From Rhizaria sp. SCN 62-66 (lineage: Eukaryota): 64,000 nt of DNA. The notes beneath the pieces were generated by a model. That model saw nothing but the letters and a program-made list of their open reading frames with translations. It made no database searches and was not told the origin of the DNA. The stretch covers positions 1 through 64,000 of the forward strand of contig MEDY01000035.1 of the NCBI GenBank assembly GCA_001724265.1, read 5' to 3'. Position 1 is the stretch's first letter; every line of letters begins with the position of its first letter. Positions 1,075 to 57,737 of the stretch are shown here, piece after piece. Position numbers and translations under genes: made by a program.

Positions 1075-2682
1075 ATGTCGTCAAGCCACAGCCAGGCGTG
1101 GAGGTGTCGTGCTTGCCAGACGTTGAACACGTCCGGGGTGCAGTGCCAGTCTTGCCCGGGCCGCCGTGCTTCGTTCAGCGTTGCTGCGGCCAGTCCGCTG
1201 GCAAACAGCAACAGCGGCAGCAACAGCGGCAGCCACGCGACGGCTGTGTCTCCCAGCGCGAGCAACATCAGCATGACCGAAGTCGTGAGGAAGGACCCGT
1301 CGGTGCCCGCGCTGCCGTCCATGCAGTACGACACGGACCTCCCGCCCGACTGGCAGCGCGTGTACGACCACTTCGGCCGCGAATACTACGTCAACCACAT
1401 CACGCAGGAAAGCCAGTGGGATCGCCCCCAGGCGCAGGCCCCTGTTGCCGCGCCCCTTGCCTTTCTGCGCCGCGCCAGCACGCATCTTTTTGTGCAGGCG
1501 CCGCCCTCGTACGAGGTCGCCGTGAGCGACGGCGGCGCGAACCCTGACGTCGGCTTCGGCGCCTAGTCTCAGGCCTCCGCGCACTCTCAGCAGCAGCAGC
1601 AGCAGCACGGCGGCTACCCACTCGACATGGAGCGCGTGCCCGTGCTGCCGGACGCCGTCCCTGAGGCCGTGGCGGACCCCTACGCCGCGGCCAACGCGGC
1701 CGATGAGGTGAACCCCGCTGAGCTGGGCCCCATCGCGGGCCGGCCGTTCGCACGCCGCAACCCCGACGAAGAGCCCAACTTCGGCGTCTTGCGCGCGCGC
1801 TCGTTCCGCGCCGAGCGTGACCTGCGCGGCAACTGCTGCAAGGTTATTTTTATTGATACGATGGGGCGTAACAAGGCGCTGTGTGTGTTCAGCATGCTCA
1901 TGTGGGGATTTTTCGCAGGTTTCTTCGCCATTTGGGCTGACCACGGCTTTAACGGCGCCGCGCTCGGCCTGTTCATCACATTCTGCGTCATCTACGGCAT
2001 CTTTTTCATCACTTTTGTCATGATTGGCGGCTGCTCCCCGCTCTGCATGGCGTGCTGCACCGTCTCCAGCAGCTGCTGCGTCAACGACTACGTCGTCGAG
2101 GCTGTGCAGGCCGAGGCCAGCTCCTCCGTCGACAACGTCCGCGGCTACCTCGCCGCGCTGCACGAGGCCACTCCGGAGCTTCGACTGCACGTCACGTGCT
2201 CGCACACCGTCTCCACGGGTTCGGGCAAGCGCCGCCGCACGCGCACCGTCGTCACGTACCGCGGCAGCAAGGTAATCGATCTCGTTTCGCACCGCGACCT
2301 GAGCGTCACGCCCGCCGTCTACGCCGCGGCCGTGGCGGCGGACCCGGCGTCGTACGCGTGCGTGACCTACGACCTTGAGTGGGATGGATCGGAGGAGACC
2401 AAGGCACGTGTCGAGCGCGAGAAGACACAGTACTACATGGATAACCGCCACCGTGACACGTCGTGCAGTGTCAGTCTCGTGTATTCGCTGGGGCCGGAGA
2501 GGCGCATGGTTGACGTGCTGTGCAAGGACGAGGGCTGTCGGTACTACCTCGCCAATTTCTTTATTAATCGTTGCTGTATGTATTTGGCCATGTACGCGTC
2601 GCTGTATCTGCCGTATATCTGCCTTTGGAAGTGCCTCGTGCGTCCTTTCCGTTACACAAACACCAAGTACATTGTTGTCTGA
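1075..2682 (+). CDS. RanBP2-type-like Zn finger + WW domain + TMEM151-like membrane protein; one gene read through an in-frame TAG at 1564-1566
   Basis: ATG 1075. WRCRACQTLN..CQSC Zn-finger-like motif, WW domain LPPDWQRVYDHFGREYYVNHITQESQWDRP, PPSY motif. TAG 1564 is followed in the same frame by SQASAHSQQQQQQHGG into ORF 1627-2682 (TM helices; ATPELRLHVTCSHT..RTVVTY..HRDLS resembles TMEM151). Ends TGA. The paralogue at 55767 has WW and TM regions in one uninterrupted ORF. Confidence 0.75.
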
Positions 2683-4575: not shown

Positions 4576-5112
4576 GATGAGTGTGTGGCTGACGAGCAAG
4601 GTGACTGCGCCCTGAATGATAATGAGAGTGCAAGGAAGTATGGTAAAGGTATAATAGAGTTAGCACAAGGGAAATACGAATTAGCACAAATAAAGACGAC
4701 TTAACGTTCAAGGCGCCGCGCAAGATGGTCGTGAATATGTTGGACGAACTATCGAGTCCGTGCTCACGGTCATCGGCTGGCGGGCAAAGTGTGCTGACGG
4801 TATCGAAAGAAACGCCCTGTTCCTGTGGCCTGCACACGAGTAGGATAGGGATTCTACGTGGTGCAGTATTACCAATGCACATGGCTGGACCTATGTTTTA
4901 ATTTGAAACATCGTCCTGGCGCCGCATATGTGTGCTTTCATGACCGGCTCAGAGGAGAGCAGGAGAGGAGGCACGAATCTTTCGCTGAGTCATTGTGACG
5001 GCTTTAACGCACGATGTGAACTGATCTAAGTTATGAAACACGCACATATAGCTAGACCCTTACGCCACACTTTGATTTCACTCTGTTTTGTTTTCATACC
5101 TGTTGCTTGTAG

Positions 5113-9056: not shown

Positions 9057-12000
9057 TTAGTCGTTGTAAGCCAGCTTAAACGTCGGCATCATAACCTGTC
9101 CCGCCGGGGTAAGCACGACAGCGCCGCGCACAGTCACCGCAACATCAAACGGCGACAACGACAGTGAATGATCCCCTTTGATTCCGGTACAGCTATTGCG
9201 CACAGCTCCAAACCCGTCACGAGACTGTTGTTGTTGTTGCTGGGACTGTTGTTGCAGTGACTGAAGCGTCGCAGTGACTTGTTGATACAGCTGCTGCTGG
9301 TGCTGCTGCGACGGCGCCGGCGGAGGCGGATACAGCGGGCTTTGCGCCGGCAGCAGCATCGAGCCGACTGGCACCGCGCCCATGGCCACACGGTACACAG
9401 TCGCAGCCGTCCGGCCGGTACTTATGGGGGTACTCGTGGGGCTCCTAGTGCCGTCGCGCACGGCCCAGAGCTCAATCACGCCGCGCCTCGGCGCGAGCAA
9501 CAGCACGTGCAGCGCGTTCGAAGCCGTCTCAGCCTCAGTCATGGCCGCGATAGACTGCGCGACAGCCTGTGTAGAGGATGGCTGCAACACTGCGGAGGAG
9601 ATTTGGCGCACCGACTGCGAGTGTGACTGAAACTGCGGTTGTGACTGCGGCGTCGAGGTTGTTGACTGGAGGCAGCGGAAGTCAAGCGCTACCCAGGCCG
9701 CGCTGGCGTCTCGGAGCCCCTTCCACAGCCTCAGCAGCGTCGCCCCGCCGGCCGGCCCGCCCGCGCGCAGCAGAGCGGCGCGGCCTAAGCCGTCGGTCCA
9801 CACAGCGAACGGAGGCGGATTGCTGACGCTATCGCTATAGCTACAGCTGCTGTTGTGGGAGGCCGCTGCACCGCTGCGATTATGCTGGCGATGCGAGCTG
9901 CTGCCGCTGCCGCGGCTGCTGCTGCCGCGGCTGCTGTCGCCGATGCGACTGTCGCTGGACACGGAGGGGTACCGGGGCAGCAGCAGGCGCGCTGTAACCG
10001 AGCCCGGAAGAGGGACACCGACCGTCGCAGCGGAGACCGCGCCCCACCGAGCCCACATGGACCCATGAGTACCGTGCGTACCAGTATTCCCAGCAGTCCC
10101 ATGAGTTCCACTTGACCCATGAGTACCAGAAGTACCAGCGGTCCCGCCGCTAGAATAAGCCCCAATCACGCTCGCATCTCCAGCGTTCGCGAGAGCGCTC
10201 ACGCTCACGCTTGCGAGAGAGCTCAAGTTAGCGCTGACTAAGGAGTCTGCGAGTGGGCGCGCCGAGAGGACCGCAAACGCAGCAACCTGACCCAGCGCGG
10301 GCGCGGGCAACAGCGCAGTCACACGGCGCGGACCGTCGGCCAAAGCGCCGGCGCCCGCAGCGGCACACACGCGGGGGCGCGCTGCTGCGGAAGATGCAGC
10401 GCTCTGATTCTGACTCTGATTTTGACGCGAACGCGGTTGTATAGGTGGATGTTCATCACCCTCGTCGTCATCCTCCTCATCGTCCTCGTCGTCTTGGTCG
10501 TCATTCGCCTCGGTCTCGGCGTTCGCAGTCCCTGTCTCAGCTGTGGGGCTCGAGGGTGTCGCAGGAGTGCCCCAGAACGAGGTCCATAGCGCGCCCGCGA
10601 CCGTTGACGCCGCGCTGGCCGCGAGCGCGAGGCCCGCCCGCGCCGCGGCCCCGGCAGCCTCGCGCGCCCAATCGCGGTTCCGCATCCTCCTCCGCCGCCG
10701 CTGGGGCCGCGGCTGCTACAGACCGTGAATGTGAGCGCCGTGGCCGTGGGCGCTATAACTGTGGGACGGGTGGCTGCTGCTGCTGTGGGGTAAATCTGGG
10801 GCGGTCCAGTCGCTGTGCTCGACTGGCAAAGCGACTGTGTGAGAGGGACGACTCACAGTCGCTGTCCCCGTCTTGATTGCAGTCCGAGAGCAGGATGACC
10901 CAGTGACCGTGTTGGTGACTGTGAGCAGCGAGGGGGCAGTGCCGGCGACGACCAACGCAGGCGGAGCGTTGTCGGGCCAAACCCCCGCCACCGCCGCCCC
11001 TGTGCTTGCAGCAGCAGCAGCAGGACTTGAAGACATGGATTCAGGGTTATACTCATGACGTTGGCCTTCTTGCTGCTGCTGCTGCTGCTGCTGCTGATGT
11101 TGTTGTTGTTGTTGTTGTTGTTGCTCAGAGTGTAGCCCGAGCTCTGCCAAGAACGCGTCTCGCGAGGGCGCGAGCGGCACAGGCGGCGCCGCGACAGCCG
11201 CCGCGGCCACCGCGCCCGCTTCCTCTTGGGCAGAGCGGCTGAGCGGCGTCGGCAGCAGCGTGACGCGCGCGCCGGTCAGCGGGAGCCTCGCCACCGCGTC
11301 GGGTGAGCGGGCGCCGGGGACGCCAACCAGCGCGGAGAGCGCGGAGTGACAATGGGCGGACAGGGCCCGCAGGGGCAGCGCGGTGACTGCGCGCGGCTGA
11401 GTCAGCAGCAACACACCGTCGCCGCCACCGCAGTCATCGCCGTCGCCACTGAGTGACTCCGACGGCTGCAGCCGCGACCGCGACTGCAACCGTGACCGTG
11501 GGTCTGTCGTCGTCGTCGTCGTCGTGGCTGTTGTGGCTGTTGCGGCAGGGTGGGAAATTGAGGGCGCGGGGCGCAGGGGCCGGGAGCGAACTGGCGCGGC
11601 GAGAGACAGGCCGCGCACGGGGCCCGCTAATGCAATGCGTGCAGTCTCACTTACGGCAGCCAGAGCCGCCCTCGCAGTCTAAGCGTCGTCGCCGTCGCCA
11701 GTCTCCGCGAGGTCGGTGCTCAAGTCGGAGACGGAGGCGGAGGCTTCAGTGAGTGCGGTGGCCGAGACTGCGGTGACGGCGAGGGGGTCGACAACGAGCA
11801 GCCGCCCGCGGGAGGTGCCCAGGAGCAGAACACTGTGCGTCGCCCGCAGCACATCACCCCCCGGCGCGGATGCCGCCGCTGAGGCTGATGCTGAGGCTGA
11901 GGCCGAACCACAGGCGGAGCGCGCGGCGGCAATGGCGGCGGCGACGGCGGCGGGCGGCGCGAGCGCGAGCGCGGGCGCAGGCACAGGCGCGGCGTGCACC

Positions 12001-12575
12001 GGGATCCACAGCGCTGACGTCACCGCCTCAACACTTGCAACAGCAGCAGCAGCGGCAGCAGCAGCAGCAGCAGCACCACCACCACCACCACCGCCACCAC
12101 CAGCGCCAGTTACCGATAGTAGAGAGATGGGGGATGGAGCGGGGACCTGTGAGGGGTCGAGGCGGGCGAGAAGGTCGGGCAGCGTCACGCGGAGCGTCTC
12201 AAAGGGGCCCTGCGCGGGATTGTGGCGGGGTCCAACCCCGCCGCCGAGCTCGAAGCATCCGGGACACATCAGCGCGCGCCGCGCGGGGCGGATGAGCCAC
12301 AGGGACGCGCCTTGGGCGACGGCAACGCAGCAGAGGTCGGGCGTCGCGGCGACCACGCAGCCGGCGAGCGGAGACGCGGCCTCGAGTAACGATGCAGAGG
12401 CTGCAGCAGCGGCCGAGGTTGCACCGGAGGCTGGGGAGGCGTCGGGTGGTGATGATAGAGCGGCGAGGGAAGCGACGACCCCGGCGAGCAAAGGAGGCGG
12501 GTGCTGACGCCAGTCGGGGCCGCCAAACGCGAAGTCGACGGGTGAGAGCGTGATCAGCCCCGCGGTGGCGTCCAT
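9057..12575 (-). CDS. RAB3GAP2: Rab3 GTPase-activating protein non-catalytic subunit (RAB3GAP2 N-terminal domain)-like; read through two in-frame TAGs (11679-11681, 10716-10718)
   Basis: Three consecutive ORFs in one frame separated only by single TAGs. LLLGTSRGRLLV in the first segment; WTDGLGRAALL..LRLWKGLRDASAAWV..LLLAPRRGVIELW in the last (family motif RMWKGYRDAQ..APRRGxxEVW). First ATG 12575, stop TAA 9057-9059. Confidence 0.8.
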
Positions 12576-46975: not shown

Positions 46976-49900
46976 TTAATCATCGTAGCCCATGAGCCCA
47001 CCGTCACTCTCCGCCTCCTCTGGCCGTACATATCCCAGCTGTTCGTCCAGACGGACAGTGAGATTGCCTGCGCCCTCAATGCCCGCAAGTATGCGCCCGC
47101 CTCCGACACCCGCACTGCCGCCGCCGCGGCCGTTGGGACCCGCAGCGCGCGCTTCGTGCTCCGAGACTGCGGTCCACTGGGGACCGTTGGGGCAGGAGCA
47201 GCCGCGCTCGGGAATGCCGGGGCCGTACTTGGTGCAACCGACGCCGCACTGGGCGCAGATAAACCACGTGGTTATGGCAGTCTTGGTCAGCAGTCTACGT
47301 GGGATCAAAATTGCGAGAAAAAAAATAACATAAAACAGAAAGTGTGATGCAAGAGACAGCAAGCAGCGTCGTGAGGCATATCATATCAAATTTCATTGTG
47401 AAATGCGAGAAGAGAACTAAAATGGACGTACTTATGGTTGTTGTTGGCGCAGAAGATGGGTTTGAATGGGACCCACTTCTTGGGCACACCACACGTTGGG
47501 TCTGTAATATGACCAAAAAAAAGTGAAAATACACATTAACAAACATGAAACAAAGCGATTGGAAAGAAAATTAGCATGAATTACATATACATATTAGATT
47601 ACAAGATGAATAGTTAAAATTATTGAAGTTACAACGATAACGTACCTGAGCACTTAAAGAGCGTGGCCGTGCCCTGCGTCTTCTGCTTAAGTTTCTCCTC
47701 GAGAGCCTCGAGCCTCTCCGCGCGCGCCAGCTGCGCATCCAGCGTCTTAAACTGTTCGCTGCGCGCCACAGCCTTGTTCGCCTCACGCGTCGCAGTGCTA
47801 TGCGCTGCCAACCGTTCTGCTGGATCGTAACCAAACCGCGCGATCGCCTCAGCGCGCGCCGCTGCAGCCTCAGCCTCTTCCGCCGTCTGCGCGCGCGACG
47901 CAGTGCCAGCGGCGGTCGCAGTCGCAGTGGATTTGTCGCCCGTGTCAGCATCGGCGTCGGCGGGACGCGCGCTCTTGCTGGCAGCGGCCGCAGCTGGCAG
48001 CGTGGGGGGCGCGCGCTTGTAGACTGAAACACCGGACACACGCGCAGTCGATCCCCCAGGCTGCAGCGAAGAATCAACGCATGCGCCAGCAGACAGCGCC
48101 GCCGTCGCGCGCGCCACGGCCGCAGCAGCAGCCTCTGGAGTGGGACCAACAACGGGGCGTTGCGCTTCGTCAAGCATAGCCGAGTAAGACGCAGCTGCCA
48201 CTGCGGACGCGCCACCGCGCGCGCCAGTTGCTGAGCCGAATAACCTGCCGCCAAAAAGCGCCTTGGAAAGCGATAGGTTCGTTGCAAGCGCAGCGGCCGC
48301 AGGCGGACTCGACGCTTTCGCTGCTGCCGACGTCGCGGCAGGAGATGCGTTTGTGGTGGCAGAGGCTGTGGCGGAGGCAGCGGCAGCGCGCTGTGCCGCG
48401 AGCTTGGCGCGCGCGGCCTCGGCGGCAGCAACCTGTGCAGGTGTGGTATCAACCTCGTTTGTCGCCACATGCGAGGCCGAGGGCGACTGTGACGCAGTTT
48501 GCAAAGCGGGCACAAAGAACCCTGTTGGTGCAGGGCGTGAGACGCCGGAGAACGACGAGCCGTACAAAGAGCGGCGCGGCGCAGTTGCGTCAGGTAACGA
48601 CGCTGAGACCGGTTGAGTGGCGGTCTGCGACTGCGACTGGGACTGGCACTGTGATTGGGAATGTGTCTGTGGTTGTGGTGTGTGCGTTTGCGACTGAGAC
48701 CGTGAGACCGCGGGCGACGCGGCAGGACTCACTGCAGTAGCGCTGCTGCCACTGCTTTCACGGTCGTGTTGACGCAGCACCGCGGCGCGCGCGGCAGCGG
48801 CTGAGGGCTGCGAGTTTGCGTGCGGCGGCAGCGTGCGCAGCCCAGGTGCCTCACTCAGAAGATCCGGCGTGCCCGCGGTCGGCGCCGCGCCCGCGACGAC
48901 GAACCGACTCAACGTGCTGTTGTCCGCGCCGGCAGTGGAGACAGTCGCAATTGTACGCATCGTCGCGGTCACGGTGCCCGTCACCGCCGCGGCGGATGCA
49001 GCACCGACCGAGTGCCGGCGGTACAGCGAGCCCGCAGACGAAGCAGAACTACTGGCAGTGCCGCTCTTTTGACTCGCGCCGGCAGTGGTGGCGGGAGCGG
49101 GGCCGAGATCTGCGAGTGTGAGCCGGCGCGGTGCTTCACCTGCCGCGCCAGTGCGTGCGGCCAAGTCAGCGGCGACTGCGCGCATGACACTTTGTGCACC
49201 GCGTGACTGCAGGCGCGCCAGAGCCAGTCCGCCAGCTACTGTCGACTCAGTAGCGGCCTGTGAAGCCGCAACAGAGACAGACGCAGGAGCTGAAGCGGTG
49301 GAGGATGAACGAGCAGGAGAAGCAGATGCCAACGATGACGACGATGATGATGAAGATGTAGTCATGGTTGGCTTCAAACTCGTTGTGTTCGCTGCAGTTG
49401 GAGGCTGCGGGCCAGCAACAGCCGCAGCGCTCGCATCCTTGTTCTCACCGCTTTCAGCTTTGCAGCTAATGCCGTGATGCATTGGCTCCCCCTGCTTGGC
49501 GGAAGCCGACGCTGTTTTGTCTGCTGTTGCTGTTGCTGTTGCAGCGGCTACAGCGGCTGCGCGCTCTTTGTCGGCGCGCACCGCAGCGGGCACCAGCGCC
49601 TGCGCAACTGCGGCAACAACGTCGAAATCAGCGAGCGCTGTGGCACGCGCCGCACGGGCCGCGCGCGAGTCACCGGCGGGCAGCTAAACGCCCGCAGCGG
49701 CTGCGTGGCGCGAAAACAGCGACGGCGCCGACGGGCCCTGCTCCAGAGCGTCGGCGGCGCCGGCGCGCTGAGCTGCGACTCGCGCGCGCGCGACCTCCGC
49801 CTGTTGCTCGACAGGCAGCTGCGTCACCAACCCACCGACACCGCCAGCAGCGGCACCAGCGTGCGATCGACTGCTGAGAGTGGCGGCGTTGCTGTCGTTG

Positions 49901-51378
49901 TCGTTGTCAGCGGCAGCGGCAGCGGTGGCGGGGGAGTTGTGGTCGTCCTCGTGTTCCGACTCCTCGTGTTCCGACTCTTCGTCTGAGCCGAAAAGCTGGT
50001 CCACGGCGGCAGCAGCGGCGTCGCGGCGGCGGGTTGCGGCGGCAGCGTCCTCCGCAATCGAAGCAGCAAGCGCGAACGCGAATTCGTCCTCGGCTGCGAC
50101 GCCCGATGCAGCGGCGCGGGCCAACGCAGCGGCGCCCGAGGCAGCTGCAGTGTTGCGGCCACCTTTCATAGTCGCGGTCGCCGCAGCGGCGCGGGCCGCC
50201 TCGGTAGGCCGCGCTGCAGACGCAGACGCAGACGATGGAGGCTGAGTCGAAACAGAGGAATTGGAGGCAGAGGTGACTGAGACGCCCGATCCAGCTCGGA
50301 AGGATCCGATGTTAACAGGCGCTGACGAAGGATTATACAGCTGCGGGCGCGCTTGCGATGCGTGTGAAAGCGCATTCTTCGTGTGCTCCAGACACATGAG
50401 CTCGCGCCTGTCCTTGTTGTTAAGCCAGACAGAGCAGCGGGAGACTGCTTCGCGGCCCCGCATAGAGCCAGTGCACTGTGACAAGTCACTCGCAGTGCCT
50501 ACCAGGAGCACTTGACGCGGGAATTTGACCGTGAGCGCATAGCCGACGCGGACAAAGTCGGGCGGCGCGTGTTGCTGGTACCCGGGCACGTGCGGCTCAC
50601 GGCGGACGACTTCGGCGCCGCCAAAGACCAGTAGCGAGCCTGTTTTGACTGAGAGCAGGGGCTCGACCGCGCCGTCGACTAGCATGACCGAGACAAGGCG
50701 GCGATCCATGTCAAACACACGCCACGTCGTGTAGGGCTTGCCGTACTGCGAGCTCTTGACGTCGCCTTTGCTGTAGAGCACGCCGAACGTCGCCCAGCCA
50801 GCCAGTGCGCGTTCAGGGCGGACTTCACTCAGAGGCACGACCGTAACACCCTTGAGCTGCGCGGCGAGCGCGTCTTCGGAAACAAGCCGCGCATGCACGC
50901 GCACGCCCGTGCTGGCGTCCACGCGCGCATCGGCGGGGGCCGCGGGGACGGAGACCACGGGCGCGGCCATCGGCGCGGTCGCGACGGCCGAAGCACCGCT
51001 GCGGAGAGTGCTGCCGCCACTGCCGCCGGAGTGCCAGTGAGGTGACAGCAGCGCGGGCGCGCGGGAGCGCTGCTTGGCGGCTGCGGCCTCGCCCAACGCC
51101 TGCACACCGCCCGTCTTCGTAGCATAGGCGTTCATCTTGTCGCGCGCAGCAACCACGCTTGCGGGCAAGGGCTTCGAAGACTTTGCAGAAGGACCTGAGC
51201 CACCGGAGGGCTTCTGGTCGGGCTCATCGTCCGCCTCGCTCATCATCACCGTCGACCGCGCGCCAAGACGCGCACCAGCCATGAAAGCAGCGGCCTTTTG
51301 TGCCGGAGTAAGATTCGCCGGCTTCCCGGCTGCAGAGACGCCCGCGCCGGAAGAGGGCGGGAGCTTGCCAGAAGACAT
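46976..51378 (-). CDS. MCM10: Replication factor MCM10, 3 exons, read through an in-frame TAG at 49684-49686
   Basis: OB-fold region WATFGVLYSK..GKPYTTWRVFD and Zn finger C(TGSMRGREAVSR)C..N..C..H before the TAG. After it, LEALEEKL and the C-terminal Zn motifs rebuilt by splicing (exons 51378-47646, 47501-47432, 47294-46976): FKCSDPTC..FCANNNH..FICAQCG..CSC..W. Stop TAA. Confidence 0.88.
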
Positions 51379-51863
51379 GCTCAGCCGTCTGGTTAAAAGT
51401 AAGGATATCGAGGCATAAACAATTTGTGGGAATACATAAAAGAATTCAATGGTAGATCTTTCAAAATATTCTTAAGAAATAACAATGATAATACTATTAA
51501 CGGACGATGCCATGCATCTTGACTGAGCGATTCACAGCTGCTGCGCCATCGTCTGCGCGCGAACCGCAGTCTCCGACCATCACCACGAAAGCGTGTCTCA
51601 AGTTGTCAGAACAGTCACGTCTTTCTCATGCTGAAAGCTGTTTTAGCTGCTCTTGTTACCTGTAAAGCTTTTGAGTAAATTATGATCGGCTTGTTTATTG
51701 ACCCGGATCCCAATCATTCACAGACTTTAGACCTACATCAACGTCGAACAATCACAACTGTCAGCTGCGGTAGTGGACATACATTTTCCTTAAAATATTA
51801 TCAAATTCCCCCGTCGCTTTGCCCTGCGCGCTGCCCGTTGCCTTCACGCTGTGCGCGCGGCTC

Positions 51864-54259
51864 TTACAACTTCTGTGGTCGGCTGGGCGTGTGCGGGCTA
51901 CCGTCTACCACTAGATCTGGTGACACGGCGCGCAGGCGGTCGATAAAGTAAGCACGCATCTCGCGCTGTGCCAACTGTTTCAGCAACAGCATTGACAGTC
52001 GCAGCACGTTGCCATCCACGTCTTTCACCATTACCCGCTGGGATTTCTTGGTACTACTACCATTAAGCTTATGAAAGACACTCCTGTTCTTCGTTTTACC
52101 CACATCTGCGCGTTTAGTGCTTACCTGAGAGATGACATGGTGCTCGACATCGTGAATCATTGACGCATACTTGCCTCCCTGAAAGAGACGATGAGCTGCT
52201 TCAAAGTCCTCTGCGCCAAACGCGCTCCCAGGTGGTGCTATGACATGTGGGAGTCCCGCGATGTCAGCCGCTTGACAAATCCACTTACTTGTACTCAGCA
52301 GGGTGGCAACAGGCACCCAACGCACGGCGACAGTCTGGCCCTTGATGGCCCAGTATGGATTTTCTGCGACGTTTTTGCTCAGCTCCGGCGACGCCATTGC
52401 GTCTGCCCGGAGTGCGCGGTGCAGCACAGGCAGTCCGCGAAGAACAGCTGGCATCGGTGGTGACTCGTGTTGCTCTCTCGCAAGTCCCTTCGCGATATAT
52501 TTCCGAAGCTGCGGTCCCGGTGGCAACTGCCTCGTTGGATGAAACAAAGTTGGTGTGCGTGGTTGCGCAGACACGCACACAGGCCACACAGTTGCAGGAA
52601 CAGCATTTTGGGATAGTTTTGCGCCCTCAACGCGCGCACGCGCCAGCGTCCGACCCAATTCGCTTACCGTCGTCTCCGCCGCCGCAATTGCGGAGGCCGA
52701 GACAAGCGCGGGCACAAGGACCGGATTGATTCCCCTTGCTTCAACTGCACCCTGAGTGCCTTCAATGGCGCCGTCTCCACCTTCCGCAGATTGATATACT
52801 GCCGACGAAAAGTCGCGGTCAATGTCGATCACGTGCGCAAGCATCTTCATGTCTTTGAGCCACACCACAGCGTGGCCCGCTGCGGCAGCCGCGGCGCGCG
52901 CGGTCGCCGCGCTTAACTCGCGCGAGCTCCACGCATGTGGAGAGAAGGGCCGTACAGGGGCGTCAGCAGCGTCGACCAGAGTGAGCATTGCATGCTCAGG
53001 AGGCAGTACCTCGTCAATGTGGGTCAGCCACTGCGCCGACGTCCTCACGCGCGACACGAGGGGCGTGCCTTGCGATTGCGCGGCAGCGGCGGTCAGACCG
53101 CTTTCAGAGTCAGACTCGCCCCCACTCTCACACTCAACCTCTACGTCTCGGAAATAGCCTTCACAGCCGTCTTCACTCTAGCTCTCGCTCTCCCCCTCAC
53201 CCTCACGTTCGCTGCCGCTCTCCTGGTCACTCTGACTTCCTGCGCCGTCGCGGTCGCCACAGTCTGTGGTCGCCGTAGTTGGAACAGTAGCGTCAGCACC
53301 GTCTGCGCTACCCCCTGCAGCAGGTCTAGGAGCGCCCTTCGCGCGCACGTACTCGCGCATCACGGCCATGCGCACCGCGTCAGACGCAGCAAACGCCGCG
53401 CCGCCCGACATCAACCCAGTTTCGCGGCGCACGTGCGGCGACAGCAGGTCCATTGCTTCAGCATTAAACTTGCGCAGGGCCGTGTACAGTGACGTTGGAT
53501 CGCTCGGGTGGCGGCTGCCGCCGGCTAGTACAGCAAACAGAGAGCTCCTCGACTTGTCTCTCTTGCTAGTTATGTCTTCGCGCGGTTCAAGTGCAACAAG
53601 TGCACATAGTCCCGCCCCAGGCAATACCGCAAGTGGAAGTACGCCCGCGCTGGCGTAGGTCACCTCTTCAACAGCTTGTGCAGCGAGAGGACGCAAGTAA
53701 CTACTGCGACACGGAAATTTCTTAGGAAGCTATACAGCAAAAGGCAGCGCATCTGGCGTAGGATTTAACGCCAGCAGACCCCCGTGATCATTTGTTGCAG
53801 TCTGCAGTGCCTAAGCCGCAGTGACGGCCGCTGCAATTGAGCTAGCCACAGGGTTTGCAACGAATAGGTTATTGTGCAGCCCGGGCGGTATTTCTCAAGC
53901 ACCGCTTGAGGGCTCAGGACAGAGTTATCAACGCTTGTGATAAAGCAGCAGCCATCATCAGACTTGCGCGTGGATCTGCTCTGCTTTTTCCGACGGCCAG
54001 AAGGTGTTCCAGGTTGGCTGGAGACTCCTGTCCGCGCCGGATGGCCTTTAGCGGCGGGGTGGTTGCTATCGCCCGATTGCAGGACCACTGCGGCGTCGCT
54101 AGCGACAACGTTCTCAGCAGGTGTTAGACCCAAAAGTTGAGCGACATGGAGATTAATCTTCTAAAGTTGGCATTTAAGACAGTTGAGGCTGCTGCTTTCA
54201 CTACACTCTGCGCAACAGCTCTGAACCACAGCAAAGCCCTTGCTCCCAGATAAAGCCAT
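51864..54259 (-). CDS. Uncharacterised protein with a degenerate Nudix-like motif; four in-frame TAGs and one apparent frameshift near 53770-53895
   Basis: ATG 54259 preceded by a splice-acceptor-like tract. TAGs at 54161, 53811, 53730, 53178 each followed by a continuing open frame. SAGVLP..LAGGSRHPSDPTSLYTALRKFNAEA resembles a Nudix box with lost Glu residues. Stop TAA 51864-51866. The 5' part is in a different frame from the rest. Confidence 0.5.
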
Positions 54260-54599: not shown

Positions 54600-55766
54600 A
54601 TTCTCTGGACTCACGTCACCACGACGAGAGAGGTTCACAAAAAATCGACGCAATCAACTGAGAACCGGTTGATAACATCAAGAATTAGCCATAGAAATGC
54701 AGTTTTATGACAAATAATATAGTCGTCAGTATGAAAATAAGTTTAGTTTTGACAAAGGCTTTTGCTCTAACCCTAATAACCATCATATTGTATAACTGTT
54801 CAGCCATATACTACACTTTGATGAGTGTCTGTGCTACTTTAAGTCATCATGTGCGAAAATAATTTTTATTATGGAGTTCGTTTGCTATACTGTGACAGAA
54901 ATGTAACTTTTTTGTCTCGATCGTAAAAAGTCCTGGAGTAACTGACTTATAAACTCGATAGTGCGTCGATAGGCGGCTTAAAGATGAGAAAAAGCGTGGC
55001 ATACAAGGTGAAATTCGTCATACAATTGCATATTGGTTGGTGTATTATACAAGCATAACCCATGTGTTCAAGCGCTGATATTGCAATTTTTTGAAGAGAA
55101 ACCAAGATATAGGCGCACGAATCACGCCCACTTGTATGCGCAACGCAACTCTGGTCACGTGTGAAGTTTGAAGTAGATATCTCTGCGTAAACAAAGATTT
55201 GTGAAGTCAATTTTGAATGGAAGATGCTTTATTAATCACTAGATTTGAATCCTGATTTATAGTTGATATGTCTTTTTGACAGACTTGAAAATCATTTTAG
55301 GCGATAAAAAATCGGATCGTCAGAAATCAGAAAGAGTTCCGCGGTCATCACAGCCACCAGAAGTTTCACCATGCGACGTGACCTGTGGCAGTGTGGCTGG
55401 AGAGGCGGGCTGTTTACAAGTGCACGGCATAAAATTCATCGTGAAGTAGGAAACTACGAAGATTCTACGAACATTCAAGAGATATTCAACACAGATATAT
55501 TTGTACACGTGCGCCTTCTGCCTTCTGTTATGAACATGTATCAGGCAAAGTTGACGAGATGGGAAGGGAGGCTGGCCGTTGCGTTCGGCTTGCTTCTTCC
55601 CGGGGGAATGGGAAAGACCCGCGTCGCGTTTATTTGGAACTGTGTTATAACTTGAAGAAACTGCTTGAACACGTGTTTTTACATTGTATTTATTGCACCT
55701 TACTCACCCTGCCAACCAAAAACATATTTTTCCCGCGCCCTCGCACCGCAGACCAGACCTCTCTCG

Positions 55767-57737
55767 ATGTCGGCCTCCCCTCCTTCCTACCCGGCGGACC
55801 TCCCACAGGGCTGGGAGCGCAGCACTGACAAGTGGGGCCGCGAGTTTTACATCGACCACAACACAGGCCGCACCCAGTGGGAGCGTCCCCAGTCCACGGA
55901 GACCGTCGACAAGCCCACCGCGCCTCCCGCCTACCAGGACGTCAGCCAAGCCCCGCCGTACCAAGCGGGCTCCTTCGCGGTCGACCCTTCCCTCGCTGGA
56001 TCCACCGCAAGCTCCGGCAGCGCGCCCCCGCAGCTGCAGCAGTACCCACAGCCCGGTTATCTCCCCGGTCAGCCTCTGCAGCTAAACATCGCCCCCGTCG
56101 CCCCCGTCGCGCCCGGCGGTCCGATCATCCTCCAAGTCGCCGGCGCTGGCATGCTCGCGGTCGGCGACACGGCCTACACCGCCGGGCAAAGTGACCCGTC
56201 GCTGGCCCCCGGCGCTCCCACCGCGCAGCCCCAATCCACGCGCGATACGCTTGCTCCTGGGTACTCGGCGGTGAACGACGCGCTCGAGCCCTTCGCGTTC
56301 GAGCGTCTCGGCTTTCTCTCGGCCTGCGCGCGCGGATTGGAAACGTACCCTATCGCGTGCGCGCTAACGCTGGTGACGCTGCTGCTCTTTGCCGGGTTTG
56401 CTGTGTTGCTGGCCGTCATGCTAAACACGGAGACAGATTATTGGGGCGACCACGATCTGTCGTACCTCCCCGGTATCATCATCTGCGGCATGTTTGGCTT
56501 CATGACGTACATCGTCAACTGCTCGGTGCACTTGGCCGCTGTGCCGTGCTGCGACGGATGCTGCTTCTACAACGGCACCAAGCCTTCGCTGTCCCGCAAC
56601 CGCGCGCGCGCGGCGCCGCAGGCCAACGCGCATAACGCCACTTCCCTCTTCGGCGGCGCTGGAGGCGGTCCCTTCAACGGCGGGTTCGCCATCAACAACG
56701 GCCGCGGGCAGCAGGCAAACCGCACGCCGTGCATGCCGAAGTACCGCGACTGGTTCAACGCGCACATGTCGGAGGCCGGAACGTACCGCGATTTGGAGGA
56801 TTACCTCGATGAGACGCGCACGGCACGCATGACCCTGAGTGCGCGTGTGCGCTGCTTTGCGTCGGAGCAGGGCCCCATGATGTCGTGGGCGCGCATCAAC
56901 GTCACCTACATGTCCGTCAGATGATAACTCTCATTTTCTCGCGATTTTATTTCAGCTGTTTAGATTGTTTTGATTCTTTGATTCTTGTTCTCATTTGCTT
57001 GATTGTGCTAATATTTCCGTTGTTTTCTTGTTTTTCTTGTAGTGCTGAGACCCCGCTGACGATCGCGTCGGCGCGCGACACCACGATTTCGTCCGAAGAT
57101 CTCCGCACGTGGCTGCGCGAGCAGGCCCGTGGTGACACGTTCCTGGCTACTCTTGACCACACATTCGACGCGACGCCGCAGAGTCGCGATGTGCTCAATG
57201 CGGTGTGCACGCATTACCAGGGCGTTATGGCGTCGGTTGCGACCTCGTCTAGCGCGTGGATCGAGTTCGAGCCCCTGGTCGCGCCCGTCAAGGGCACGTT
57301 TATCGTCAGTGAGGTGCGTTTCTGGAGGAACAGCTCTTCGTGCTATCTTACAATGTGCTGTAAACTTCGTGTTTTCTCATTTGAAGCGATATATTGATTA
57401 TTTTTAAAGTGAACTGTATGGGTCAAGACTATTTTAAGGCGTTTATGTTGGATAATCTTACTCACAATGCGATCTTTGCGACTTGGTTGTTTTCTTTGCT
57501 ATCATTGCTTTTGCACCGTGACAGAACTCGGGCGGTTCATTTTACGTCTCGTGCATGCGCTCATGCTGGTGCCCGACGTTCGCGGTCATGTTCTGCTGTG
57601 TGCCGTGCTACGCCGGTTTGTGGCACTGGGTGCCGCGCGTCCGTGTGGGCTCACGCAAGCTTATCAATGTCGCACCTCCGATCCTTGAGTCGGACCCCAG
57701 CCGTCTCCGCATCATTGGCCGCATGCAGGTCGCGTGA
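55767..57737 (+). CDS. WW domain + TMEM151-like membrane protein, 3 exons (paralogue of 1075-2682)
   Basis: WW LPQGWERSTDKWGREFYIDHNTGRTQWERP, PPSY/PPAY motifs, two TM helices. Exons 55767-56911, 57043-57313, 57525-57737; introns GTCCGT..TAG (56912-57042) and GTGCGT..CAG (57314-57524). Stop TGA. Confidence 0.75.

Follow-up and report, generated by a model that had tools for sequence, protein, structure and literature searches.

How is a gene read whose frame carries a TAG well before its end? The question is raised by an MCM10 gene of Rhizaria sp. SCN 62-66, on the minus strand of the first 64,000 nucleotides (nt) of contig MEDY01000035.1 (the window; C35:1-64000 of a eukaryotic assembly of 34.9 Mb in 714 contigs). 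The preliminary description of this locus had proposed read-through. The TAG is apparently read, but the cause appears to be a genome-wide change in the meaning of TAG: the MCM10 codon is one instance of a reassignment and not a gene-specific read-through. In this nuclear code UAG is probably a rare sense codon, most likely for glutamate, and UAA and UGA would stay stops. The distribution of the codon, a gene for a tRNA with a CUA anticodon and changes in the release factor eRF1 are all seen directly in the DNA.

The MCM10 gene and its in-frame TAG

The TAG lies at 49684-49686 on the minus strand as codon 565, in the context GGC GTT TAG CTG CCC, as first described. It is preceded by 564 open codons starting at ATG 51378, and the same frame does continue past it, with 679 further open codons versus 9 and 23 stops in the two alternative frames over that stretch. 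With two GT-AG introns removed, both deduced from the sequence, the product would have 1,373 residues and end at TAA 46976. Exon 1 (47646..51378; all MCM10 features are on the minus strand) encodes the internal domain and then a long Ala/Ser/Thr-rich linker that carries the TAG. The internal domain (OB fold and CCCH zinc finger, 50419..50922) matches Pfam MCM10_OB with an E of 1.7e-12 and the Mcm10 internal domains in PDB entries 7y01, 3h15 and 3ebe with E of 6e-7 to 8e-7; a zf-primase match (E 0.008) fell under the cut-off. Exon 2 (47432..47501, 70 nt), which holds C1248, C1262 and H1267, is set off by the predicted introns 1 (47502..47645, 144 nt) and 2 (47295..47431, 137 nt). Exon 3 (46976..47294) holds C1281, C1284, C1300 and C1302 and the terminal TAA.

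The spliced Cys/His residues (C1243, C1248, C1262, H1267, then C1281, C1284, possibly C1288, C1300 and C1302; 47192..47652) form a CCCH + CCCC cluster that we regard as a putative MCM10 C-terminal zinc domain. The two clean introns said to rebuild this domain keep their GT-AG pair and the expected pattern, but exon-by-exon searches of Pfam, PDB and Atlas gave no MCM10 match for the cluster, and the label is given on Cys/His spacing and position for that reason. The proposed check of both MCM10 domains by profile search therefore succeeded for the internal domain and not for the C-terminal exons; of the full-length domain order, the first part stands by profile and the last by pattern and place. 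Compared with MCM10 as described in a review (PMC5333062), the internal OB fold and ZnF1 are shared and the Cys/His cluster comes at the C-terminus in the expected order, whereas the low-complexity linker of ∼850 residues and a cluster without profile support are unlike it. The C-terminal zinc domain is reported there to be absent from yeasts and is described as metazoan only. A protein ending at residue 564 would keep the complete internal domain and could therefore function by itself; the evidence from MCM10 is accordingly weaker than that from eRF1 or from the RAB3GAP2-like gene discussed below. The CCCH + CCCC cluster sits in a unicellular MCM10, despite that metazoan-only description.

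An assembly error is an unlikely source of the MCM10 TAG, because an identical 564-residue product is found on seven public contigs from three sources and because a contig from a second study (run X2) carries the TAG unchanged. The X2 contig spans 49478-49707 and has just 21 letters beyond the TAG, which falls short of the 31 letters of our bridging rule for run contigs. The sequencing runs compared are from activated sludge and wastewater, according to their records. PolyA-library contigs lie on either side of the TAG, one of them covering 46987-47298; among the run contigs listed there is no spliced MCM10 join and no RNA contig over the TAG, a lack of cover that is uninformative. An intact MCM10 copy elsewhere had been named as grounds for doubt, and none was found: the genome search returned one match, the locus itself. 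An intron that skips the TAG was considered and rejected, since none of 52 in-frame GT-AG pairs had a donor like those of this genome.

TAG within genes and at gene ends

Besides MCM10, three genes of the window contain at least four further in-frame TAGs (1564, 10716, 11679 and 53178), and none of the long frames of the window terminates in TAG. Two of these codons, 11679..11681 and 10716..10718, are in a RAB3GAP2-like gene (9057-12575, minus strand, TAA end), whose sole Pfam domain (residues 923-1047) is downstream of both. The view that MCM10 is the strongest case in the window has to be given up in favor of this gene; beyond the window it is also surpassed by eRF1, which carries a TAG within its N domain. 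A WW-domain membrane-protein gene has a TAG at 1564..1566 (plus strand; frame 964-2682, TGA end), and an unannotated gene next to MCM10 has one at 53178..53180 (minus strand; the frame ends at TAA 51864), with further TAGs at 53730 and 53811 that are possibly ahead of its start. Similar WW-domain membrane-protein genes are found at 964-2682 and 55656-56924 (both plus strand), with a TAG in the first only, and the unannotated gene adjoining MCM10 has a diverged second version in run X4 (window 51328-53402).

Stops were counted in an 823-kb sample of the genome (201,489 codons) with a six-frame segmentation model that penalizes the three stops equally; a simple codon-score classifier was dropped in its favor as it was confounded by antisense frames. 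Internal in-frame stops comprised 37 TAG, 9 TAA and 2 TGA (27, 3 and 1 with 300-nt margins). The called gene ends were 30 TAA, 29 TGA and 3 TAG, a count from which 154 ends located at splice donors and 19 others whose stop was distant are excluded, and the internal and terminal distributions differ with a Fisher p of 5e-16. All three TAG ends are doubtful: one comes after a true TAA, one is within a Sel1-like repeat, and one runs 25 codons on to a TAA. Genome-wide, the pattern xDEL/xDEF + TRR was completed by TGA 15 times, TAA 12 times, TGG seven times and TAG never (n=34; TAG 0 of 27 stops). In-frame TAGs occur within eRF1, kinase, UBC, SUV3 and UCH domains, and the base after the 37 internal TAGs is C in 14, A in 11, T in 6 and G in 6.

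The internal count has weaknesses that weigh against a sense reading of TAG. Four of the 37 internal TAGs come from loci chosen for carrying a TAG, and about seven are doubtful (three clustered in L151, two in a decayed gene of L133, L114, and an intron in L178). Random nonsense changes are expected to be ∼69% TAG in this genome, and the excess of internal TAG alone therefore proves little. The signal becomes strong through the combination: TAG is present inside genes and missing from gene ends.

TAG is rare, with 38 of the 201,489 codons (0.02%) versus 7,700 GAG and 1,257 GAA; it would make up 0.4% of Glu codons, if it is Glu. Over the whole genome roughly 1,500 in-frame TAGs are expected. 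By quartile of GC content at third codon positions (GC3), from low to high, the TAG counts are 17, 9, 9, and 2, and the coding frames of ten dynein heavy-chain loci had no TAG, just 3' splice sites. Lone TAGs flagged in domain families were also inspected. Four of nine kinase flags turned out to be intron acceptors and not coding TAGs; so did a further flag in a kinase, the one in kinesin and two of three in Helicase_C, and those in DEAD and C505 may be of either kind. No lone-TAG flag was raised in the AAA (21 matches) and ABC (20 matches) families. In-frame TAGs are frequent in a gene family that pairs kinase with Sel1-like genes (L133, L134 and L135); the Sel1-like copy of L133, with a TAA, a TGA and two TAGs, looks decayed.

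The CUA tRNA and the release factor

A single gene for a CUA-anticodon tRNA was found by pattern search (one tRNA in five rows) at G000:C84:76008-76080, minus strand (L086), and a second pattern search gave no further copy. The tRNA has 73 nt, an Rfam score of 58 bits, fully paired stems and a short variable loop; a poly-T run is located 3' of the gene, and the same contig also bears kinase and kinesin genes. Free-energy folding was not significant (z -1.5) and the Rfam alignment was used instead. Among 47 other tRNA sequences the nearest is Glu(CUC), identical at 47 of 73 positions, followed by Glu(UUC) with 40; the Gln tRNAs gave alignment scores of 31.5 and 25.5, against 47. Its acceptor-stem ends are shared, among these, with the Glu tRNAs only, and it has U11-A24, U13.G22, A46, no base 47, and A37, which are described as Glu determinants in E. 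coli (PMC9976931). Glu(CUC) has eight tRNA genes versus this one for CUA.

No UUA or UCA tRNA was recognized among 31 pattern rows, from which intron-bearing or atypical tRNAs would escape. TGA appears not to be read as sense. An 85-nt tRNA at L009:2709-2793, unassigned by ARAGORN, is probably an intron-containing tRNA-Tyr, and the two tRNA-Trp(CCA) genes (L049:602-674 and 5030-5102) have an A31-C39 mismatch that leaves four standard anticodon-stem pairs.

A domain search of the genome returned eRF1 and one Pelota-like gene. The eRF1 gene (G000:C63) has its in-frame TAG at L032:1593-1595, in the N domain at the position of human E107, where 120 homologues have E in 106, D in 12, V in 2, and Q in none. 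A public contig (L147) that may be from the same population matches the gene with 100% identity along 1,626 bases, the TAG among them; a metagenome scan for eRF1 relatives gave the identical contig only. Compared with the homologues, the protein carries T32S, G57S, T58K and K130Q. Residue 32 is T in all 120 and residue 58 is T in 119; E55, L69, S70, and Y125 are retained. T32 has been linked to the guanine of UAG, and Iotanema has T32G (PMC5304391); T32A is lethal in yeast, and E107A alters read-through, according to PMC4381064. The nearest relative, P0004 (86%), has T58K in common and keeps T32.

The following scheme would connect these observations. A tRNA-Glu(CUC) may have become the CUA tRNA by one anticodon change while still being charged with Glu. 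It would out-compete an eRF1 whose T32S, G57S and T58K changes weaken UAG recognition, and since a CUA anticodon cannot read UAA, the two codons would be uncoupled. Synthesis of eRF1 would itself need its own UAG to be read. MCM10 could then be made as a single 1,373-residue protein, the TAG being tolerated in an unconstrained linker. With one tRNA gene UAG would be translated slowly, in agreement with the scarcity of the codon in high-GC3 genes. Charging with Glu, the lost recognition of UAG and a full-length MCM10 are what we infer here.

The eRF1 TAG stands out in that its exon has 90% GC3, and TAG is otherwise nearly absent from such high-GC3 sequence. It allows a further, speculative proposal, that the genome is at a very early stage of codon capture, with UAG gone from gene ends, one tRNA-Glu(CUA), and an eRF1 that still partly terminates; the TAG in eRF1 might then act as a negative feedback switch in which more eRF1 leads to more premature stops in its own mRNA. 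Autoregulation of release factors via an internal stop is described for Mimivirus and bacteria (PMC3521657), and another such circuit for plants (PMC5397192). The feedback suggested here would be a cellular eukaryotic counterpart of the autoregulation of bacterial RF2 and Mimivirus eRF1, built from a code change. We consider it doubtful because it concerns a single site and was noticed after the fact.

The amino acid, rival readings and known codes

That TAG is a sense codon we hold to be very probable; given that, its meaning is Glu with good though lesser confidence, mostly on the strength of the tRNA. The reliance on the tRNA arises from the Pfam comparison, in which the bit sums for seven residues over eight TAG sites were E 563.4, Q 561.8, K 561.5, S 556.4, Y 550.2, L 548.0 and W 545.7, so that Glu is ahead of Gln by only 1.6 bits and of Lys by 1.9. 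Leu was tested because the Val of P0004 at eRF1 position 107 weakened a first guess of Glu made from eRF1 alone; it is 15 bits under Glu, and the CUA tRNA lacks a long variable arm. Trp was rejected as the worst of the seven residues. In a kinase alignment with three true TAG sites, E is first or joint first at two and joint second at one (a fourth site is a splice acceptor). Asp is found at two other TAG sites in human SUV3 and yeast Ubc6, and the genome's own paralogues have D at two TAG sites.

A number of results do not favor Glu, beginning with the Val in P0004. Ser occupies those SUV3 and UBC sites in the second SUV3 and in UBE2J2, paralogues within the genome put CAG (Gln) opposite two of the TAGs and Thr opposite another, and none of the TAGs found falls on an invariant Glu. 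Several TAGs are within Gln runs, and the flanks of the 37 TAGs are nearer those of CAG than of GAG (-28.8 vs -39.7 bits); they resemble TCG or TTG (Ser, Leu) contexts more than either. Such flanks fit TAG arising from any neighbor codon in unconstrained sequence. The tRNA has A36 in place of C36, a strong Glu determinant in E. coli, where amber tRNAs (U35) often accept Gln or Lys (PMC9976931). The small Pfam gap, the CAG paralogues, the Gln runs, the flanks and the behavior of amber tRNAs would all agree with the same reassignment in which UAG is glutamine, as in Iotanema, with the Glu-like tRNA charged by GlnRS, or in which UAG is a mixture of Glu, Gln and Lys. We think this rather unlikely: the body of the tRNA resembles those of Glu tRNAs and neither of the two Gln tRNAs, Gln is absent from the 120 eRF1 homologues at the TAG site and Asp is found at four other sites, and, whatever its meaning, TAG arises by mutation most often from CAG, through a transition.

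The chief rival, possible but well behind the reassignment to Glu, is that UAG is a working but avoided stop, partly suppressed by the CUA tRNA, with full-length and truncated products mixed; the reassignment would then be underway, and the two readings are not mutually exclusive. The low TAG count and its fall from low to high GC3, the dynein heavy chains free of TAG, the one CUA gene versus eight for Glu(CUC), and the retained E55, L69, S70 and Y125 of eRF1 are all as such partial suppression would have it. Against it, no credible gene end is a TAG and eRF1 itself needs UAG to be read; moreover, highly expressed genes avoid reassigned codons in the established Blastocrithidia code too, in which UAG makes up 1.4-1.7% of codons (PMC12153298). 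An explanation confined to MCM10, by programmed read-through or by a split gene with a separately expressed 3' half, is very improbable. The TAG is followed by C, a leaky context, the first in-frame Met past it is codon 633, and yeasts do without the C-terminal domain (PMC5333062), but the other TAGs of the window and dozens elsewhere, with all four bases following, a cognate tRNA, and the lack of an AT-rich spacer or of a fall in coding signal at the MCM10 TAG all speak for a general cause. We give the least credence to the TAGs being assembly errors, nonsense alleles, pseudogenes under the standard code or codons edited from UAG to UGG. The bias of nonsense changes to TAG and the decayed L133 gene could be cited for it; the eRF1 and MCM10 TAGs recur in separate public contigs, however, Trp is the poorest fit, and the missing terminal TAG and the CUA tRNA would be left unexplained.

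The organism is likely a cercozoan (Rhizaria). In a tree of GRP94 (60 of 120 hits, one gene, few named rows) it falls in a long-branched clade adjoining Paulinella (87) and chlorarachniophytes (94), apart from Cafeteria. Membership in Sainouroidea would be a guess; dynein heavy chains are present in the genome as a complete set, and Rosculus vilicus differs in its 37.7% GC and lack of flagella (PMC10770858). The small-subunit rDNA (L056:1501-5945, G000:C706) is very divergent and has four group I introns. The first of these holds a 191-codon frame (2062-2637), which by its motif we take to resemble a His-Cys box homing endonuclease. No tandem polyubiquitin, in which a rhizarian insertion could be sought, was present among the loci read; the ubiquitin genes L120, L121, L123, L124, L182 and L183 are quite divergent single units that begin with Met-Ser-Met and in some cases carry a tail of three residues. 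At L122:1501-1900 (G000:C681) a ubiquitin-like domain with an in-frame TAG is fused to a long frame, which presumably resembles a phage-type S74 chaperone segment.

The closest known code by lineage is the rhizarian exLh code (UAG=Leu), also in a rhizarian nuclear genome, with UAG alone reassigned and UAA and UGA at gene ends (Panek et al. 2017, PMC5304391). As reported there, exLh eRF1 has L69A, the codon is common (384 TAG in 71 genes) and the CUA tRNA was only predicted; here L69 is kept alongside T32S and T58K, TAG is very rare, and the CUA tRNA gene was found. UAG is likewise uncoupled from UAA in Iotanema spirale and phyllopharyngean ciliates (UAG=Gln or Leu, UAA stop; PMC5304391, PMC11687900). 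Iotanema also alters T32 of eRF1, to Gly, but these lineages are unrelated to the present one, and the tRNA here is Glu-bodied. The ciliate Oligohymenophorea sp. PL0344 shares UAG=Glu through CUA tRNAs most like tRNA-Glu, and differs in UAA=Lys, UGA as the only stop, and ten CUA genes, whereas here UAA is a main stop, with one CUA gene and no UUA tRNA found (PMC10553269). A tRNA-Glu(CUA) that gives Glu at UAG is also shared with the peritrich code (UAR=Glu) and Blastocrithidia (UAR=Glu, UGA=Trp, UAA also stop), which recode UAA too, at 1.4-2.3% of codons in Blastocrithidia (PMC12153298); the present genome has TAG at 0.02%, UAA and UGA as plain stops, and GC-rich coding DNA. When UAA reassignment was tested, TAA ended 30 of 62 genes and only three internal TAA remained at 300-nt margins, again with no UUA tRNA found.

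Changes of UAG only, with UAA as stop, are described for Leu (exLh and some ciliates), Gln (Iotanema and some ciliates) and Ser (Scotinosphaera) (PMC11687900, PMC5304391), and the UAG=Glu codes described come with UAA=Lys (PMC10553269) or UAA=Glu. A literature search that covered mostly non-subscription papers turned up no code in which UAG means Glu while UAA and UGA stay stops. Few nuclear codes uncouple UAG from UAA, going by a list of December 2024 (PMC11687900). The MCM10 TAG thus points to a genome-wide and probably new variant of the nuclear code. Genes of this genome would then be cut short by standard gene calling, as in the public MCM10 product that stops at residue 564. The genome supplies both molecular halves of the change, a CUA tRNA and a changed eRF1, and because the 86% relative keeps T32, which of the eRF1 changes frees UAG is testable in yeast. 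A TAG content of 0.02% in GC-rich coding DNA is the kind of early state predicted by codon-capture models. If true, a UAG=Glu code that keeps UAA and UGA as stops would add one more nuclear code, the second in Rhizaria and with another amino acid than the first.

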